A stretch of DNA of 64,000 nt from IMG/VR virus record IMGVR_UViG_3300045988_100041. One strand, 5' to 3'. This document shows, one piece after another, positions 10,064 to 60,869 of the stretch. The DNA is from a virus. The number at the start of each line of letters is the position of its first letter. Position 1 is the first letter of the stretch. A program made the position numbers and the translations under genes. The notes under the pieces were generated by a model, which did no database searches, was not told where the DNA came from, and worked only from the letters and a program-made list of their open reading frames with translations.

Positions 10064-11188
10064 TTATTCGGCATCCACGTTGTATATTCCCTCATAGAAC
10101 CGCTCCATTTCCATAGAATGAATGTCTCGTTCCTTTTGAGATTCTTGGATGTAGTAATCGTGAACGATATTCACATCATCCCATCCGCCAATCTCCATAG
10201 TCCGCTGCTCAGTCCAGCCGAGATGATAGGCGAGGGAAGCAAAAGACCTGCGCAGACCATGCACGCCCACTTTTGGAAGATCATTTTCTTGGCAGACACG
10301 GTTTATCTGACTCCATATCGTATTGGGGTTGCAGGTAACAAGCTTGGTCCGATCCTTTGGGATGATCTCAAGAAGCCTCGGAATGATAATAGGAACGCTT
10401 CTGGTTGAGGTCTGCGTCTTGTTTGTTTCCTTGTGAACAAGCTGGTTGTTTTCGTCGTATACGGTTGCTCCGGATACGCGAATGTAGCTGATTTTTCCAC
10501 TTGGAGATATAATGATGTCGCTTCGATCTAAGTCTATGATTTCTGAGCGGCGAAGAGAATGCAGACCAAGAAGCGCAGGGAGTTCACACGGCTTTCCTTT
10601 GATTGCTTTGATGAATAGCGGAATCTGCTCATAATCCAAGTATGGCTGCCCGCCTTTTTTGAACTTCGGAAGTTGGACATTTGGCGGGTCTACGCCGGCA
10701 AAACGCATTGCAGTTGAAACAACTGTCCAGCGGTTGCAAACTGTCTTTGGGGCGACAATGGATGTCTCGCGGCTGATCGCCATCTGCCAATCGATAGGCT
10801 TTGAAAGATCGCAGTCCATATATTCTTTAAATGCGTTGCGCTGAACCGTTCCGTATTCCCGTATTGTAGATGGGGAGACAATGCCTTTCTTTTCTTCCAT
10901 CATCTTTGAGATGGCTTGTCGGCAGGTTATCTTTGGCAAGCTCTTCTTTGATTCAATAAATCCTGCGCGTATGGCCTTTGCTTTTGATATGCAAAGGTCT
11001 TTTGTTTTTTCGGTGATACTTTGCTTCTCTGCGTCCAGATAAATCCGCCAGCTGCCGCTTGGAAGCTTCTTTGGGGTTGGAACCTTGATTTCGTCTTTCT
11101 TCTTTCGCTCTTTGAGAAGCTTTTCCCCACACCAGTTGCAGAAGATGGAGTTTTCCGGGACAGTTCTGCCACAAAACTTACATTCCAT
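10064..11188 (-). CDS. int: tyrosine integrase with N-terminal zinc ribbon
   Basis: CKFCG...CNWCG at the N-terminus. C-terminal HSLRRSE, HGLRRSFASLA and VHDYY recombinase-like residues. ATG chosen inside track ORF 10064..11326. Confidence 0.9.
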   Translation of the reverse strand: MECKFCGRTVPENSIFCNWCGEKLLKERKKKDEIKVPTPKKLPSGSWRIYLDAEKQSITEKTKDLCISKAKAIRAGFIESKKSLPKITCRQAISKMMEEKKGIVSPSTIREYGTVQRNAFKEYMDCDLSKPIDWQMAISRETSIVAPKTVCNRWTVVSTAMRFAGVDPPNVQLPKFKKGGQPYLDYEQIPLFIKAIKGKPCELPALLGLHSLRRSEIIDLDRSDIIISPSGKISYIRVSGATVYDENNQLVHKETNKTQTSTRSVPIIIPRLLEIIPKDRTKLVTCNPNTIWSQINRVCQENDLPKVGVHGLRRSFASLAYHLGWTEQRTMEIGGWDDVNIVHDYYIQESQKERDIHSMEMERFYEGIYNVDAE

Positions 11189-11360
11189 TTTGAAGCTCCT
11201 CCAACGCGCAGATCGCGGCGTCGCGCTCTTGCATAATACGAAGAAATTCCTGCTTGAGAACATAGAACTGCTCGGCGCAGAGTCCGAACTGCGGCGCGAG
11301 CTTGATATTTTCGTCCAGCGCGTCAAGAACGACCTGATCGCGCTCAGTTGGTGATTTCAT
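11178..11360 (-). CDS. small hypothetical protein (possible excisionase or regulator)
   Basis: ATG follows CAGGAGAAAAATT. Overlaps the integrase start by 11 nt. 60 aa. Confidence 0.4.
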   Translation of the reverse strand: MKSPTERDQVVLDALDENIKLAPQFGLCAEQFYVLKQEFLRIMQERDAAICALEELQNGM

Positions 11361-55749: not shown

Positions 55750-56859
55750 TCAGTTGTCCCGCTTTGCGGAAAGATTTTTCAGTTCTTTCACACACTGCGC
55801 AGTGATTTTCACTGCTTCATCGATCTTGGCAAAGTCTTTTTCCTGTTCGGCTCCGAATCTTGGCTGATATTCGTCCATCGGAAGCCGGAGCGTATAGTCA
55901 AAAGAAAACCGGACGGCGCTTCGGGCGCGTTCTTCCTGGTATCCAGCGGCAAGCAGGACTCTCGACGGCTTATTGTCTCCGCTGGAACACGCCGCACCGC
56001 CAGACACCATGACATTCTCAGAAGAAAGTCTCAGGACAAGGGCGGTATTTTCAACGCCTGGGAACGAGATATTTGCGATATAGGGAGACTGCGAAGATTT
56101 GTTTCCTTCGTAGACGCTGCCGTTTAATTTTGCGTCCGGGATCTCGTTCATCATACCATCAATGAGCCGGTCGTGCAAGCGGCCTGCCATTTCTGCAAAC
56201 TCCGCAAGATGCTGTGTCCGGAACCAGAGCGCCTGAGAAAACGCCGCAGCGAGTGCGACAGAAGGGGTTGCGAAATGTTCCAGTTCATAGATGCTTTCCG
56301 GATCTTTTGCAATCAGAACACCGATGCCGACGGGCGCGCCGAATTTATGGCCGCCGCCTGCAATGTAGTCGATTCCGTCCGACTTGTAATTGAGCTGGAA
56401 TTTTCCCATGGCTGCGGTGCAGTCGGAAAAGCATACATTCCACGCGCCTGTGTTTTCTAGGTCGTAAATGAATCCGGTTTCGTTGCAGGTGTGGATATGC
56501 GCAAGAGCGGCTTCTTTTTTGCGGGACCTGCTGTGAATCTTACCGTAATCGGGAAGTCTTTTATAGACTGCGTCGTGTTCGTAGGAAGAACAAAGCGCGT
56601 CTCGATAATCGTTCAGGAGGCGAAGCGCTGCAAGGCGGCAGCTTTCGGTGGCGCTGGATGTGAAGATGACCTGCTCCGGTTCGCAGTTTATGCACGCTGC
56701 GACGATTTTTTTCTGTTCCTGCAAAAAGGCGTTGTTTCTTGTCCCGCTTGCGTGGATGCTGTTTGGATTCCCGACTTCACCACGGCATACCCTTGCAAAT
56801 TCGCGCATGGATGAGGAAAGCACCGGCGATGTGGCTGCGTAGTCGAGGTAGATCAGCAT
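55750..56859 (-). CDS. class-V aminotransferase / cysteine desulfurase (NifS/IscS-like)
   Basis: YLDYAATSP, GNPNSIH, SSYEHDAV, FSDCTAA, GGGHKFGAPVGIGVL (PLP lysine) and VSGGAACSSG (active-site Cys loop). Confidence 0.8.
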   Translation of the reverse strand: MLIYLDYAATSPVLSSSMREFARVCRGEVGNPNSIHASGTRNNAFLQEQKKIVAACINCEPEQVIFTSSATESCRLAALRLLNDYRDALCSSYEHDAVYKRLPDYGKIHSRSRKKEAALAHIHTCNETGFIYDLENTGAWNVCFSDCTAAMGKFQLNYKSDGIDYIAGGGHKFGAPVGIGVLIAKDPESIYELEHFATPSVALAAAFSQALWFRTQHLAEFAEMAGRLHDRLIDGMMNEIPDAKLNGSVYEGNKSSQSPYIANISFPGVENTALVLRLSSENVMVSGGAACSSGDNKPSRVLLAAGYQEERARSAVRFSFDYTLRLPMDEYQPRFGAEQEKDFAKIDEAVKITAQCVKELKNLSAKRDN

Positions 56860-57368
56860 GGCGCGGTCCCTCCGAAGTTTGGAACGAAGGAAGAAAGAAG
56901 CTGATGATAGAACTTATTTTGCGCCTGCAGCTCAATGCACCGCTCTTTCAGCGAGGATAGTTCTGCGTCCGGTTCTTTGGAAACGGGAAGCACGCCGGAA
57001 GGCCCCGGATTTTTGGGTTCATTTGCGCCGCTCAGACCGATGGACACCAGAAGGGCGCTGTCTACGAGCTGCATTTCATGCTGCTCCAAGGTCGAGATAT
57101 AGCTTCCAAGGCGTTCTTTGCTGACGGTATAGATGTTTTCACACAGGACGGTATTTTTCACGCCTTTCATTGTGATTTCCACGTGCGTCGGAAGGGGCTT
57201 TTTCTTCTCTGCGGTCGTTAAGTAGCAGATCTCTATGTTCGGAGAAAATAGGTTATTTTTCTCGTTTGAAACGACAACGGCAGGTCTTGACTTGCGAATT
57301 TCACTTCCAAGCCCGTCTTTCCAGTTATCTACCCAGAAAATATCGCCGCGATGGATGCTACGTTCCAT
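56853..57368 (-). CDS. MazF/PemK-fold toxin-like protein with C-terminal extension
   Basis: IHRGDIFWVDNWKDGLGSEIRKSRPAVVVSNEKNN ... ICYLTTAEKKKPLPTHVEI ... LCENIYTVSKERL, plus a roughly 60-aa tail. Its stop overlaps the desulfurase start by 7 nt. Confidence 0.7.
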   Translation of the reverse strand: MERSIHRGDIFWVDNWKDGLGSEIRKSRPAVVVSNEKNNLFSPNIEICYLTTAEKKKPLPTHVEITMKGVKNTVLCENIYTVSKERLGSYISTLEQHEMQLVDSALLVSIGLSGANEPKNPGPSGVLPVSKEPDAELSSLKERCIELQAQNKFYHQLLSSFVPNFGGTAPC

Positions 57369-57469
57369 TTCTTTCGTCCTTTCTTTCACATTTTTCTATG
57401 TACGGCGGCACGTCCGCACGATATGCCGCCTATTCAGTTTAATTGCGTTTGAACTGAATATTGAGGGTG

Positions 57470-57742
57470 TTATCTCACTGCGTCTTTCAGCGCCTTTGCG
57501 GGGCTGAAACGAACGACGAAGTGCTGGGGAACGTCGATGGTTTTGCCGGTATTCGGATTTCTCGACTGCTTGCTGGCGCAGTATTTCGCGGCGAATTTGC
57601 CGAAGCCCGGAACGTTCACGGTGTCATGCACGATGAGCGCTTCCTGCACCGCATCGAACACGGCATTTACTGCGCAGATCGCCTGCGTCTTCGGAACGTC
57701 CATCCGGTTCGCTACGGCGGTTACGAGTTCGTCTTTGTTCAT
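57470..57742 (-). CDS. hup: HU/IHF-family DNA-binding protein
   Basis: MNKDELVTAVANRMDV ... VPGFGKFAAKYCASKQSRNPNTGKTIDVPQHFVVRFSPAKALKDAV. Confidence 0.9.
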   Translation of the reverse strand: MNKDELVTAVANRMDVPKTQAICAVNAVFDAVQEALIVHDTVNVPGFGKFAAKYCASKQSRNPNTGKTIDVPQHFVVRFSPAKALKDAVR

Positions 57743-57769
57743 GATTTTCCTCCTTTCCCGAAAATTTCA

Positions 57770-57845
57770 TGGTGAGCCGTCCCGGAGTCGAACCGAGATT
57801 TTACCAGTTATGAGCTGGTCGCTCTAGCCTTTGAGATAACGGCCC
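57770..57845 (-). tRNA. tRNA-Met or tRNA-Ile2 (anticodon CAU)
   Basis: Hand-folded cloverleaf. Acceptor GGGCCGU/ACGGCUC, anticodon arm ACCAG-CUCAUAA-CUGGU, T-arm CUCGG-UUCGACU-CCGGG, encoded ACCA. The D-stem has one mismatch. Confidence 0.8.
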
Positions 57846-58221
57846 ATCGATTCCGGCTTGACGTACCGGCCGCGAGGTCTTGTGCACAGACCAACGGCAA
57901 ATCAGGTGATTGCACACCGTCTCCACCTTGTTATCCTCATGATGGACGATCTGAGTGGGGAGTTCCCATTTCGCTTGTTTACTCCCAAACTTCGCTATCG
58001 GCTATATCAACCCGACGACACCGCTGCCAGATGCGGAGGTTTCATTCCATCGGGGGAAGTCATCCGATGGCGGGCATGGGCGGCTTGGCAGAATCGAACT
58101 GCCTCGGGTCAGTTGCTCGTCGCTTCCCTTTACCAAATGCCGCGTGTTGCCACACTGACGCAGTGGCCGCGGAGGGTTGGCTTTATTTATAACGCGCCAC
58201 GACTCCCACAAGAGGGCGCTT
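57846..58221 (-). ncRNA. non-coding GC-rich spacer with T-loop-like hairpin; candidate part of a large structured RNA
   Basis: No credible ORF. Hairpins include GGCAG-TTCGATT-CTGCC (58087-58103, minus sense), CATCGG/CCGATG, GGTCT/AGACC and GCGCC/GGCGC. Strand is inferred from the neighbouring genes. Confidence 0.3.
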
Positions 58222-58380
58222 TGGCGGATGCGGCGGGGATTTGAACCCCGCATGGTGCAGACAGTATGCGACGAGCTTTATTCCCGTCCGAGGTGGCTGC
58301 TTGAACCCCAATAGGTTTGAGTGTGCCGCGCTTTCCTGCACCGCATACCCTTGCTACCTTTTCCATTCGGCCACGCATCC
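58222..58380 (-). ncRNA. 159-nt tRNA-like RNA with greatly extended central arm
   Basis: Nested perfect 7-bp helices 58226-58232/58374-58380 and 58264-58270/58342-58348. T-arm CGGGG-UUCAAAU-CCCCG. Class-II-like D-arm UGGCCGAAUGGAAAAGGU. 3' end is G-CCA. Confidence 0.45.
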
Positions 58381-58389
58381 ATATTTTGC

Positions 58390-58713
58390 TCAGATTTTTG
58401 CGGTACAGCGGTATTTGCAGGTTTTCCAGTCCGCGAGGCTGCACGACTCGAAGATGCAGGGTGATCCGGCGTACTCCGGCTTGTCGCAGAATTCGTGGAT
58501 CAGCTCCGGATACAGGGCGTTCATTGCAAAAAGGTTTCTTGCCGAATCCGGCCCGACAAACATCGGCTTTCCTTTCGGTGCGTAGTCACGGATCTGATAG
58601 GGGATTTCGTCCCGTTCGCTGTAGAAATGGACCGCGACCGGCGTCACGTCCTTCTCTACGACGACGTAGACATTTTTCGTGCCGTTGGTGAGATAGCGAA
58701 TGTCCAAGCTCAT
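58390..58713 (-). CDS. hypothetical protein embedded in the RNA locus
   Basis: ATG after AAGGAGGAAAACAA, inside track ORF 58390..58827. 107 aa, no motif recognised. Confidence 0.55.
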   Translation of the reverse strand: MSLDIRYLTNGTKNVYVVVEKDVTPVAVHFYSERDEIPYQIRDYAPKGKPMFVGPDSARNLFAMNALYPELIHEFCDKPEYAGSPCIFESCSLADWKTCKYRCTAKI

Positions 58714-59081
58714 TTGTTTTCCTCCTTGCTTTGTTTTCTTGGTTTTGTACAGCCTGCCTCCCGGCTCCGGAGCCGCCGTTACTCGACGCCTAGACGCTCC
58801 CGTGCAGAAGTTGGTCTGCGTCGCCACGCCGGTTTTTCTTCCATCCTTTACGCCTCACAGCGGACTGTCGGAAGGCCGGGAGGGTAAGCCACGGAACTTT
58901 TCAGCCCTGCGCCGGTGCATCGGTCGCATCCGTTTTTTCACACATTAAGCCGGAGCCAGCTAATTAAATTCGCAATCTGTCGTACTTGCACTACCTACAG
59001 ATTGAGCGGATGGCCGGATATATCGTTTCACCAAGCCTTTGGAACCTCAAAACTTTCCCTGAGTCCGCCGCAATACCCATG

Positions 59082-59155
59082 TGGAGTGCGTGAGGAGAAT
59101 CGAACTCCCACCATCAGATTGGAAGTCTGATGTTCTGCCATTAAACTACACGCAC
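59082..59155 (-). tRNA. tRNA-Gly (anticodon UCC), copy 1
   Basis: Acceptor GUGCGUG/CACGCAC, anticodon arm UCAGA-CUUCCAA-UCUGA, T-arm GGGAG-UUCGAUU-CUCCU, U73 and CCA encoded. Confidence 0.9.
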
Positions 59156-59162
59156 ATAAATG

Positions 59163-59287
59163 GCTCCCCGTTTTACTCCGGTGCGGGAGCGTTCTTCCCG
59201 AAAACCCATAGCCAGGCTTCCCAGCTTGGAGCACCGGAATCTCTGAAATGTTCCGGTGAGCGCCTTCGCTTACATGGGTGACGCTTT
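59163..59287 (-). ncRNA. structured RNA repeat, copy A (125-nt core)
   Basis: Fills the gap between the two tRNA-Gly genes. Shares its fold with copy B, with compensatory substitutions (see finding at 59163-59610). Confidence 0.55.
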
Positions 59288-59295
59288 AAAGAGTA

Positions 59296-59369
59296 TGGAG
59301 CGGCATACGGGAGTTGAACCCGCGTTTTCAGATTGGAAGTCTGACGTGCTTCCGCTGCACCAATGCCGC
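59296..59369 (-). tRNA. tRNA-Gly (anticodon UCC), copy 2
   Basis: Acceptor GCGGCAU/AUGCCGC, D-stem GUGC/GCAC, anticodon arm UCAGA-CUUCCAA-UCUGA, T-arm GCGGG-UUCAACU-CCCGU, U73 and CCA encoded. Confidence 0.9.
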
Positions 59370-59493
59370 ATAAGGCGCGCATAGGATGGAAGAGGTACAA
59401 GACCATCCCATGCACTTCCGGTCTTTCCCGGCTGCCAGAACAATCCCTATGGAGGGGCAGGCGGGAGGCTCGTGAACCACTGCCTGCATAGAA

Positions 59494-59610
59494 GCTCCCC
59501 ATTTTACTTGGGTGCGGGAGCGCTCCTACCCAAAACCAACAGCCAAGCTTCCCATCTTGGAGCGCCGGACGATTCCGGCGAGCGCCTGCGCTTACGTTGG
59601 CGGTCGCTTT
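59494..59610 (-). ncRNA. structured RNA repeat, copy B (117-nt core)
   Basis: Aligns with copy A from AAAGCG to GGGGAGC. All helices are conserved through paired changes. Confidence 0.55.
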
Positions 59611-59668
59611 TCTGCACAGAAAGGAGACATTACGCCTCGCCGCAGCAGCACAGAAGGGAGCTGCGGCA

Positions 59669-59739
59669 TGGTGGGAAAATGCGGAATTGAACCGCAGCAT
59701 GAAGGCTTTATGTTCCTCCCTAGCGCACCTGCTTTTCCC
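59669..59739 (-). ncRNA. aberrant tRNA-like element
   Basis: Canonical acceptor GGGAAAA/UUUUCCC, T-arm UGCGG-UUCAAUU-CCGCA and ACCA. There is no foldable D-arm, and the anticodon-like arm GGAGG/CCUUC carries a 9-nt loop AACAUAAAG. Confidence 0.4.
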
Positions 59740-59768
59740 GCATGGCGTGACGGGTCACGCCTTGTTTT

Positions 59769-60869
59769 CTATGCGATCTCCGACCGGCTTTTTTTGACGG
59801 TAGGCTGCGGCCGGAGGTTTGAGAAAAAATCATCGCCCTGCATTTCAAGATACCGCTTGTTGCGGTCTGCCTGACGGTCTTTTTCTTCCTGCACAAGAAG
59901 CGTCTGGCGGCGTTTCCTGCGGCTGGTGAGTTTGCCGGAATAGATCTGCGTGACTTCTGCCGATTCATGCCCGAGCTTTGCTTGCAGTTCTTCCAGAGGC
60001 ATGCCGCCGTTGAGATCGAGCCGCGCGCCGACGTGCCGCAGGTCGTGGGACCGGACATTATCTACACCTGTCACGCGCTTTACATGGCGGCGGACAAGCT
60101 CTGTCAGCCATTGACGGCTGCCGGCGTGCCAGGATTCTGCGTTGAAGTTTCTGGACGTTCTGACTTTTTCTGCGCAGGTTCCAAAGAGCGGGTCATCGTC
60201 TTTTGCATAGGAAGGGCGGATGCCGCTTTTAAGATAGAGCCTTACGGCGGTCTGCGCGATGGGCGGGAAGTCTACAACGCGGTATTTGTTGCCCTTGCCG
60301 TGCTCTACGGTCAGCTCTTCGTTTTCCCAGTCCAAGTCGGCAGGCGTGAGGGCGAGAAGTTCGCAGTTTCTGATCTCTGTGGACAGAAACAGGACGGCGA
60401 TTGCATAGTTTCGCTCCCATTCCGGAACGCCGCTTGATTTTGGGGAGTTGTTCCGCCACAAAAGTGCCGCCTGTTCGTCGGTCAGAATCTGGTCATAGGG
60501 TCTTGCATCTTCCTGACGGGTGTCCGGCATGAGGAATTTGGAGACGGGGTTTTTGTCATAAAAGCGGTAGTCTCCAAGCTGGGGAGACGAGGCGTATTCA
60601 TAAAATCCGGAAAGAACTTTCAGATACTGCTTGACGGTGGACGGTTTTCTGCCGGTTGCAAGCAGCATATCACGCCACGCCTGAATGTCTGTGAAGGATA
60701 CCTCGTGGTTCCAGTTGTCCCGATCTTCAATCATAAAGAGGCTGAACAGTTTTATCACGTTGTCGATATTTTCAACCGTATTTTCTGAGCGCCCGATGGC
60801 GATCATGTTTGAACGGTAGGAACGGTAGGCTTCCATGAACTTCTTTTCTTCCTTGATGGGCGGTGCCAT
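59769..60869 (-). CDS. second tyrosine recombinase/integrase (XerC/D-like)
   Basis: N-terminal SAM-like core-binding region, then SHDLRHVGARL and LGHESAEVTQIYSG. ATG after AAAGGAGCAATACAT. Confidence 0.85.
   Translation of the reverse strand: MAPPIKEEKKFMEAYRSYRSNMIAIGRSENTVENIDNVIKLFSLFMIEDRDNWNHEVSFTDIQAWRDMLLATGRKPSTVKQYLKVLSGFYEYASSPQLGDYRFYDKNPVSKFLMPDTRQEDARPYDQILTDEQAALLWRNNSPKSSGVPEWERNYAIAVLFLSTEIRNCELLALTPADLDWENEELTVEHGKGNKYRVVDFPPIAQTAVRLYLKSGIRPSYAKDDDPLFGTCAEKVRTSRNFNAESWHAGSRQWLTELVRRHVKRVTGVDNVRSHDLRHVGARLDLNGGMPLEELQAKLGHESAEVTQIYSGKLTSRRKRRQTLLVQEEKDRQADRNKRYLEMQGDDFFSNLRPQPTVKKSRSEIA

Follow-up and report, generated by a model that had tools for sequence, protein, structure and literature searches.

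Three covarying structured RNA families absent from Rfam 15 are fixed at tRNA and tRNA-like ends in gut phage tRNA arrays

Introduction

ROOL and GOLLD are large elaborate noncoding RNAs of phages and prophages that are often encoded close to tRNA islands, and tRNAs sometimes occur within or adjacent to GOLLD; one ROOL example is 659 nucleotides (nt) long, and many GOLLD members exceed 800 nt (PMC12286853). Theta ribozymes, which are minimal ribozymes of the hepatitis delta virus (HDV)-like type, are found beside the tRNAs of gut Caudoviricetes, phages of mammalian-gut Bacillota (PMC10879173). Here, we describe an RNA locus of approximately 2 kb in the viral record IMGVR_UViG_3300045988_100041 (64,000 nt; this whole stretch of DNA is referred to below as the window). 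The locus is bounded by the stop codon of an integrase gene (59769) and the start codon of an HU gene (57742), and it holds three canonical minus-strand tRNAs, one real gene of 107 amino acids (aa), two copies of a structured RNA of about 120 nt (R), and several tRNA-like elements, together with two further structured RNAs (X and Y). X, R, and Y are three conserved, covarying structured RNA families that are absent from Rfam 15.

The locus shares features with each of these systems. Like ROOL and GOLLD, X has a place within a phage tRNA island, with tRNAs on both sides, a shared context that is not proof of homology, and X has no universal protein neighbor, just as ROOL and GOLLD have no known protein partner. 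X differs from them in its size (approximately 320 to 400 nt), in its occurrence in gut Oscillospiraceae-type phages, and in showing no covariance-model similarity to them at an E value of ≤10. Assembly into homo-oligomeric nanocages is a trait of ROOL and GOLLD. Regarding theta ribozymes, which lie within a few nucleotides of a phage tRNA 3' end, the likeness is one of position: X and Y start 0 to 2 nt after an NCCA end. However, no HDV-like nested double pseudoknot was found beside any CCA end and no HDV-family model of Rfam matched at E ≤ 10, and X and Y are much larger and have other conserved cores.

In the Escherichia coli 3'ETS-leuZ (external transcribed spacer) sponge, the tRNA-microRNA transcripts (TMERs) of murine gammaherpesvirus 68 (MHV68), and MALAT1-mascRNA, a tRNA or tRNA-like fold sets the end of the neighboring RNA via RNase P or RNase Z. 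The only echo of these systems in Rfam is a subthreshold mascRNA-type match on a 159-nt tRNA-like element of the locus (TL159). Those are single cases of cellular or eukaryotic-virus origin, whereas the locus described here is a shuffled phage array with several RNA families and many mimics, in which processing is inferred. The locus also touches on TnpB/IS605 elements, since the TL159 homologue of two related loci (L009 and L026) contains a TnpB gene together with the 3' structured RNA of that gene. However, X, R, and Y have no similarity to the omega-RNA region, and the window has no TnpB.

Results

BLAST comparison with phage records identified two short blocks that are common to human-gut phage scaffolds. 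The block at positions 58971 to 58883 holds a 20-mer of X, GCAGGGCTGAAAAGTTCCGT, which was present as an exact match in at least 117 IMG/VR stretches and also in four metagenome-assembled genomes labelled Oscillospiraceae, Oscillibacter, or Eubacteriales. Around this core, X occurs in about a dozen subtypes, in which the helices share no sequence and complementarity is nevertheless kept. The 368-nt spacer at 58714 to 59081, which the original prediction had described as noncoding and hairpin-rich, is mostly occupied by X. X is best described as a predicted large ornate structured RNA family that is absent from Rfam 15.

X begins 0 to 2 nt past the CCA of the upstream tRNA. Its 5' domain is variable (about 110 to 130 nt), consists of hairpins, and carries one of two alternative conserved loops (UGAAACGAUAYAU or ACGGA...GUAAG), depending on the subtype. 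After an AU-rich linker come a hairpin, AGCUG-GNNC-CGGCU (58961 to 58947), and a near-invariant three-way junction (58933 to 58891), ACGGA-UGCG-[hairpin]-CGCA-GG-[GCU-GAAA-AGU]-UUCCGU, which includes a GAAA-loop hairpin. The 3' domain (about 130 to 160 nt) has a long outer stem that starts directly after the junction, closes just before YUGUG(A/U)AAA, and differs entirely in sequence between subtypes. X ends at CUGUACAAAA.

For 28 diverse copies of X, RNAalifold predicted 44 pairs, 23 of which showed compensatory double changes. Regarding the alignment cells that could pair, the observed value (92.8%) was higher than that of shuffled controls (78.1%; 0 of 500 reached the observed value) and far higher than that obtained when the partners were slid (36 to 44%). 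Similarly, the covariation score was 0.427 for the observed data, 0.166 after shuffling, and 0.07 to 0.11 after sliding. Among these pairs, G·U (197) greatly outnumbered A·C (24), indicating that the selected molecule is an RNA from the tRNA strand and not a DNA site. As for a coding role, the sense strand contained stop codons in essentially all copies, and no open frame of >67 codons was found on the antisense strand of X in the window.

The junction stems of X rest on invariance and not on covariation, because core variants are nearly absent. When a different base was demanded at two positions of the core's 3' junction strand, the "not-G" and "not-C" scans returned one uncompensated variant and none, respectively. 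The sole IMG/VR variant found in this strand (L124:7642-7662) has GUUCCAUGG in place of GUUCCGUGG, with its 5' strand uncompensated. An RNase P-like P4 pairing of CCGGCUUA with GAAAAGUUCCG in X was rejected, as it is broken in L031 and L093, which compensate within the local hairpin. A T-box-like UGGN:NCCA pairing of X with the upstream tRNA end was also discarded; it showed a two-state pattern only and was mismatched in the window's own type.

The two copies of a roughly 120-nt structured RNA reported in the original prediction were recovered by a repeat search, in which positions 59163 to 59238 matched positions 59494 to 59569 (84% identity over 76 nt). Two modules make up R: R5, a four-way junction composed of P1 (CCCAYG/CURUGGG), P2, P3, and a P4 that covaries freely and has the loop UGRGAA, and R3, an H-type pseudoknot. 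The two modules are separable, because in some relatives a tRNA follows R5 directly, without R3. Paired cells amounted to 96.2%, compared with 35 to 47% after sliding, and 10 pairs had compensatory changes, both pseudoknot stems being among these. The R pattern was present in 32 IMG/VR stretches.

Y has four hairpins arranged around the invariant single-stranded segments GGAAUGAAACCUCC and UCUGGCAG. The second and third hairpins (hp2 and hp3) showed 100% pairing and compensatory changes (CCGC/GCGG to CCAC/GUGG; UCGG/CCGA to CCGG/CCGG to GCGG/CCGC), and hp1 and hp4 were swapped wholesale between subtypes with their stems still formed. A long-range stem proposed by RNAalifold (GCCCGC with GCGGUG) broke in three sequences, and we preferred the local hp2, which is always paired and shows compensatory changes. 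The Y pattern was found in 92 IMG/VR stretches, many of which had no X nearby. Like the 368-nt spacer, the spacer at 57846 to 58221 is noncoding, as had been noted, and most of it is occupied by conserved structured RNA. Conservation and covariation outside the three canonical tRNAs, on which the original prediction of an RNA-rich locus had hinged, were found for X, R, and Y alike, and the prediction stands in this respect.

These RNAs have fixed positions relative to tRNAs. Of the 115 unique copies of X, 111 were preceded by a tRNA or tRNA-like NCCA: ARAGORN placed a tRNA upstream at the expected distance in 49 copies (labelled Gly, Trp, Ser, Met, Gln, Phe, Cys, and Thr, with one undetermined), and in 62 copies an acceptor-like stem closed the preceding NCCA. 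Of the four exceptions, three had a T-arm and an acceptor stem ending in ACAA. All unique copies of Y (66 of 66) started at the nucleotide directly after NCCA. Downstream, the next tRNA started 151 to 226 nt past the X anchor at many loci, which corresponds to 2 to 17 nt after the end of X. R always ended 5 to 8 nt before a tRNA-Gly(UCC); copy A of the window starts 8 nt after the first such tRNA and ends 6 nt before the second, and copy B ends before a mini tRNA-like hairpin instead. In summary, the array is a chain of units, each composed of a tRNA or mimic and a structured RNA.

Relatives differ by the gain, loss, and reordering of such units. Compared with L089, the window has one extra unit of R plus tRNA-Gly, and it is missing a mimic of approximately 95 nt between the 67-nt tRNA-like element (TL2) and Y. 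The RNA modules (window positions 58079 to 57919 and 58385 to 58080 compared with relatives) were 93 to 100% identical, whereas the adjacent integrase, 107-aa protein, and HU genes were 67 to 77% identical. This excess identity points to very strong constraint or to recent modular exchange.

Across the whole window, ARAGORN and Rfam gave the same result of exactly three tRNAs, each of them encoded by the minus strand within the RNA locus (Table 1), which bears out the original prediction of a tRNA(CAU) gene ending 27 nt before the HU ATG and of two nonidentical tRNA-Gly(UCC) genes. Membership in the tRNA family (RF00005), defined as the Rfam gathering score of 29 together with an ARAGORN call with an anticodon, was found for these three genes, and no tRNA-like element reached the threshold. 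The two tRNA-Gly(UCC) genes differ in sequence. The tRNA(CAU) is not an initiator, because it has G1-C72, and is thus of the elongator-Met or Ile2 type. It also has C4-G69 and C5-G68, which we take to be the TilS determinants of E. coli tRNA-Ile2, so that it may decode AUA rather than AUG.

Rfam 15 was searched at the gathering score and at an E value of ≤10, the latter scan covering window positions 57400 to 60100. At the gathering score, only tRNAs were detected in the window and in 10 related loci. The additional matches in the E ≤ 10 scan were noise, namely, reverse-strand tRNA look-alikes, subthreshold matches of the mascRNA and tRNA-Sec type on TL159, and a 17-nt T-arm fragment that matched beta_tmRNA at 10.2 bits versus 84. 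At E ≤ 10, no match was obtained over X in six diverse related loci (L001, L002, L003, L017, L029, and L031). Membership in ROOL, GOLLD, raiA, tmRNA, RNase P, T-box, and HDV-like families was ruled out by Rfam 15 at this threshold. The earlier suggestion of a large ornate RNA such as ROOL or GOLLD was therefore half right: a conserved large RNA, X, does fill the spacer at 58714 to 59081 beside the tRNAs, and it matches neither family. The other candidates that had been proposed (raiA, tmRNA, RNase P, T-box, and HDV-like RNAs) found no counterpart.

For HDV-like RNAs, we looked for a nested double pseudoknot (P1, P1.1, P2, P3, and P4) with a catalytic C in J4/2 and cleavage at the 5' edge. A relaxed descriptor of our own making, which differs from the published RNArobo file, gave no matches within 6 nt of any of the seven CCA ends; elsewhere it gave one match, compared with a mean of 1.95 in shuffled sequences.

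Table 1. Features of the RNA locus and its flanks, listed in the leftward direction
Feature	Position in the window	Strand	Evidence or remark
Tyrosine integrase	59769-60869	minus	Upstream flank of RNA locus
72-nt tRNA-like element	59668-59739	minus	Read from sequence; not called by ARAGORN or Rfam
R copy B	59493-59610 (118 nt)	minus	R5 + R3; 5 nt upstream of mini tRNA-like hairpin
Mini tRNA-like hairpin	59450-59487	minus	Fold z-score -2.55; read from sequence
tRNA-Gly(UCC) number 1	59296-59369	minus	ARAGORN; Rfam RF00005, 68.8 bits; CCA encoded
R copy A	59162-59287 (126 nt)	minus	R5 four-way junction + R3 pseudoknot; repeat, alignment, pair counts
tRNA-Gly(UCC) number 2	59082-59155	minus	ARAGORN; Rfam, 71.5 bits; CCA encoded
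X, ~339-nt structured RNA	58743-59081 (59081->58743)	minus	Covariation; fills 368-nt spacer 58714-59081
ORF107	58390-58713	minus	Small conserved protein; invariant C76, C86, C91, C99
TL159, 159-nt tRNA-like	58222-58380	minus	7-bp acceptor GGAUGCG/CGCAUCC, D-like arm, T-arm CGGGG-UUCAAAU-CCCCG, GCCA
TL2, 67-nt tRNA-like	58077-58143	minus	Alignment; weak Rfam T-arm match
Y, ~155 nt	57920-58076 (58076->57920)	minus	Conserved and covarying; starts at nucleotide after TL2 CCA
tRNA(CAU)	57770-57845	minus	ARAGORN; Rfam, 51.4 bits; ends 27 nt before HU ATG (57742)
HU-family DNA-binding protein gene	57470-57742	minus	Pfam PF00216, E = 4.9e-26
MazF/PemK-like endoribonuclease homologue (178 aa, C-terminal extension)	56853-57389	minus	Downstream of HU
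Class-V aminotransferase (cysteine-desulfurase-like)	55750-56859	minus	Downstream of HU

The tRNA-like elements differed in how well they were supported. TL159 has approximately 95 nt where the anticodon arm would be, and its Rfam matches were subthreshold only (tRNA-Sec, E = 2.1; mascRNA, E = 0.26); its fold is putative, as the homologues are too alike for a structure test. In L009 and L026, a TnpB element of 1.27 kb interrupts the homologue of TL159 between the equivalents of window positions 58321 and 58310; the protein of this element has HTH_OrfB_IS605, OrfB_IS605, and Cas12f1-like TNB domains (in L009, the gene is at L009:1773-2876, minus strand). The 3' structured (omega-type) RNA of the element ends in GUGUCAA immediately before the shared UGGGGUU.AAGCAGCC (window position 58310 onward). 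This end position looks as if the tRNA-like element TL159 were the guide-matched target. TnpB copies were found inside tRNA-like elements, at several places of the arrays, in at least seven relatives (L009, L026, L078 [two copies], L110, L028, L101, and L119), and L049 and L086 had a solo omega-like copy within another mimic. A tblastn search with the L009 TnpB and a blastn search with its omega region gave nothing significant in the window; only the target-side flank (58310 to 58222) is shared. The 159-nt tRNA-like RNA of the original prediction thus retains its acceptor stem, T-arm, and CCA, and it falls below the Rfam threshold; with its homologues in L009 and L026 split by TnpB/IS605, it is better described as a tRNA-like gene serving as a TnpB/IS605 insertion site in relatives.

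TL2 ends in CCCA in the window and in ACCA in relatives, and its T-stem covaries (GGCAG/CUGCC versus GGCCG/CGGUC). The hairpin at 58087 to 58103 that had been read as an isolated T-loop is indeed a T-arm, but it is part of TL2 and not isolated. The mini tRNA-like hairpin has a 6-bp acceptor-like stem (GCAGGC/GCCUGC), a short inner stem, the loop UUCACGA, and a tail that ends in UCCA. The 72-nt element, earlier called a D-arm-less tRNA-like element, can be drawn with an acceptor stem (GGGAAAA/UUUUCCC), a T-arm (UGCGG-UUCAAUU-CCGCA), and a terminal ACCA, and it has no D-stem; it is weak in other respects, with a fold z-score of -0.32 on a slightly offset segment (59661 to 59737) and only about three relatives that share the stretch. 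It is possibly a decayed tRNA.

ORF107, the open reading frame (ORF) for the 107-aa protein, is the sole ORF of the region with homologues (45 proteins; 58 to 95% identity; nearly all about 107 aa), in agreement with the earlier reading that only one ORF was convincing. The remaining ORFs of the region overlap tRNAs or structured RNA. ORF107 and its 45 homologues are unnamed and matched no Pfam or PHROG family. Its four invariant cysteines form a putative Cys4 metal site. The AlphaFold2 model (predicted local distance difference test score [pLDDT], 74.6) was confident across residues 1 to 75, and its comparison with Protein Data Bank (PDB) folds gave no match at E ≤ 0.001. Clustering of the ORFs within ±6 kb of approximately 105 X loci revealed no protein family that was present at all loci, and ORF107 accompanied X solely in the window's own lineage (22 of the approximately 105 loci). 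The suggestion that the 107-aa protein is an RNA-binding or RNA-processing partner gained no support from these Pfam, PHROG, and fold comparisons or from its distribution.

At L009:4324-4581 (minus strand) and 16 other loci, a gene for an 85- to 89-aa protein with a CxxC...CxxC (zinc-ribbon-like) pattern lies between X and the ORF107 homologue; the window does not have this gene. Another conserved motif (...GUAGCCCUUCGGGGCGGGUAAAGUCUGCUAUGUAAGGCCAAGGGGYGGGGGCUGGUAGCAAAA) was present between the end of X and the ribosome-binding site (RBS) of unrelated ORFs at 25 loci (L002:4215-4300 plus 24 others, e.g., L004, L006, and L023) and not in the window. This motif may represent a leader or a fourth structured RNA.

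A tape measure protein, a portal protein, a helicase, and two integrases identify the window as a phage genome, and the phage is probably a temperate gut phage of the Oscillospiraceae type. The other tyrosine integrase gene is at 10064 to 11326 (minus strand), approximately 48 kb away from that of the RNA locus. Directly past the stop codon of the latter, a GC-rich hairpin, GGCGTGACGGGTCACGCC, at 59744 to 59761 is followed by a T-run on the plus strand only and resembles a terminator facing the RNA locus from the opposite direction. Immediately past the HU gene of the window come the genes for the MazF/PemK-like protein and the class-V aminotransferase. An HU gene was located downstream of the array in 27 related loci, and the class-V aminotransferase family recurred beside the array in 21.

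Discussion

Conservation of X, R, and Y extends over many phage contigs; they covary as RNA of the tRNA strand, and their positions relative to tRNA or tRNA-like ends are constant. We consider it likely that the locus is a leftward tRNA operon in which tRNA and tRNA-like units punctuate stand-alone structured RNAs that would act in trans. In such an operon, three true tRNAs would be carried on one leftward precursor along with four or five tRNA-like elements, in which the acceptor stem and an encoded NCCA are retained and, in some cases, the T-arm as well; this precursor would probably read on into the HU gene, which is probably cotranscribed with the array. Host RNase P would cut the 5' end of each tRNA or tRNA-like element, and the encoded NCCA on every mimic is consistent with recognition by RNase P. 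A tRNA 3'-end activity would then cut at each CCA, and the products would be discrete, stable structured RNAs, either freed or left tRNA-capped, which would act in trans during infection. Since the NCCA junction is so strictly kept, our most likely guess for X, R, and Y is a tRNA-centered role, which may be maturation, protection, or sequestration.

Several points weigh against this operon model. Cotranscription, the processing sites, and the stability of the RNAs are all inferred, and a scan for sigma-70-like promoters at 57300 to 60000 found none. In Bacillus, an encoded CCA is an antideterminant for RNase Z. Because CCA inhibits RNase Z, cuts at the junctions of CCA with X and with Y would need another nuclease or self-cleavage, or else the tRNA would stay attached. 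In the window, X precedes the RBS of ORF107 and not a tRNA, so that X could also act there as a 5' leader. Parts of the locus (the 72-nt element, 58147 to 58221, and 59370 to 59447) had little or no support from relatives. Furthermore, some of the counts given above are inflated by relatedness, because most of the related contigs come from one IMG/VR dataset (3300045988).

The strict start of X and Y at the nucleotides after NCCA also fits the idea that X, Y, and perhaps R may be new self-cleaving or catalytic RNAs that cut at the tRNA-CCA boundary and mature the 3' ends of phage tRNAs, as an analogue of theta ribozymes with other folds. An encoded CCA that blocks RNase Z calls for another cutter, and near-invariant junction cores within fast-changing helices are a trait of ribozyme cores. 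The position equals that of the theta ribozymes of gut Caudoviricetes (PMC10879173). However, no ribozyme family of Rfam matched the window or X in six relatives at E ≤ 10, there was no HDV-like nested pseudoknot beside any CCA, X (approximately 339 nt) far exceeds known self-cleavers in size, and maturation would bring no benefit to the mimics that make up many of the upstream "tRNAs"; we judge this explanation unlikely. The density of elements that keep only the acceptor stem, T-arm, and NCCA is unusual, with 62 of the 115 X copies following such mimics, and it could instead indicate an array of decoys or sponges, an alternative already raised with the original prediction, in which NCCA mimics and tRNA-flanked RNAs titrate host tRNA-targeting defense toxins or tRNA-binding factors. 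A hypervariable, modular array is what an arms race predicts, and a phage gene for a MazF-like endoribonuclease adjoins the array. We see this, too, as improbable, since no linked defense or antidefense gene was identified and titration does not account for the fact that X and Y have large, conserved folds other than that of tRNA.

A purely local role, in which the structured spacers would serve the neighboring tRNAs, ORF107, and HU as leaders, attenuators, or signals for processing and stability and would have no function as free RNAs, finds some footing in functional tRNA-operon spacers, which are known, in the constant 5- to 8-nt distance of R from tRNA-Gly(UCC) or a mimic, and in the good RBS that follows X in the window and in several subtypes. 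It is a very unlikely explanation for the locus: what follows X varies from unrelated ORFs at some loci to tRNAs of differing isotypes at others, contrary to expectation for a gene-specific leader; no terminator/antiterminator alternative was observed; and the size of X and its conserved three-way-junction core go beyond the needs of a processing signal. Hardly any credence attaches to the view that the locus is debris (decayed tRNAs, recombination scars, and IS605/TnpB remnants) conserved only through close contig kinship. TnpB and omega-RNA regions do lie inside tRNA-like elements in at least seven relatives and a solo omega-like copy exists, some segments are common to only two or three relatives and fold no better than shuffles, and certain modules are 99 to 100% identical, perhaps as a result of recent exchange. 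In the case of X, R, and Y, however, this view is already refuted by covariation, as pairing is kept through many compensatory changes between subtypes without shared helix sequence; in addition, G·U greatly outnumbers A·C, and the window contains no TnpB or omega-RNA sequence.

Beyond the operon model, X and Y might be undescribed RNA classes tied to the tRNA 3' end, either CCA-cutting ribozymes or self-assembling, tRNA-tethered ornate RNAs akin to ROOL and GOLLD; we regard this as a long shot, albeit one worth stating. If true, CCA-cutting X and Y would free phage tRNA maturation from host nucleases, and under either version the shuffled acceptor-stem/CCA mimics would belong to one system with X and Y.

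Among the papers covered by a search for the core sequence of X, none contained it. From IMG/VR, 8,495 unnamed candidate structured RNAs have been catalogued (PMC10690425). X, R, and Y, which are new relative to Rfam 15, may already figure in that catalogue as anonymous motifs. With this qualification, they appear to be new families of structured RNA tied to phage tRNA islands.

Few large structured RNAs that lack an assigned function are known, and ROOL and GOLLD are the two from phage tRNA islands. X would add a third family, unrelated to those two and smaller, and R and Y accompany it; all three come from human-gut phages that are abundant. A rule that had stayed implicit in earlier cases also emerges here: the structured RNAs are joined firmly to the NCCA end of either a tRNA or a mimic. 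The NCCA junction offers a concrete handle on function, whether this is processing, self-cleavage, or tRNA tethering, and X, R, and Y are compact RNAs suited to structural work. More broadly, phage "tRNA arrays" hold many mimics that are missed by standard tRNA finders, and TnpB elements insert into these mimics.

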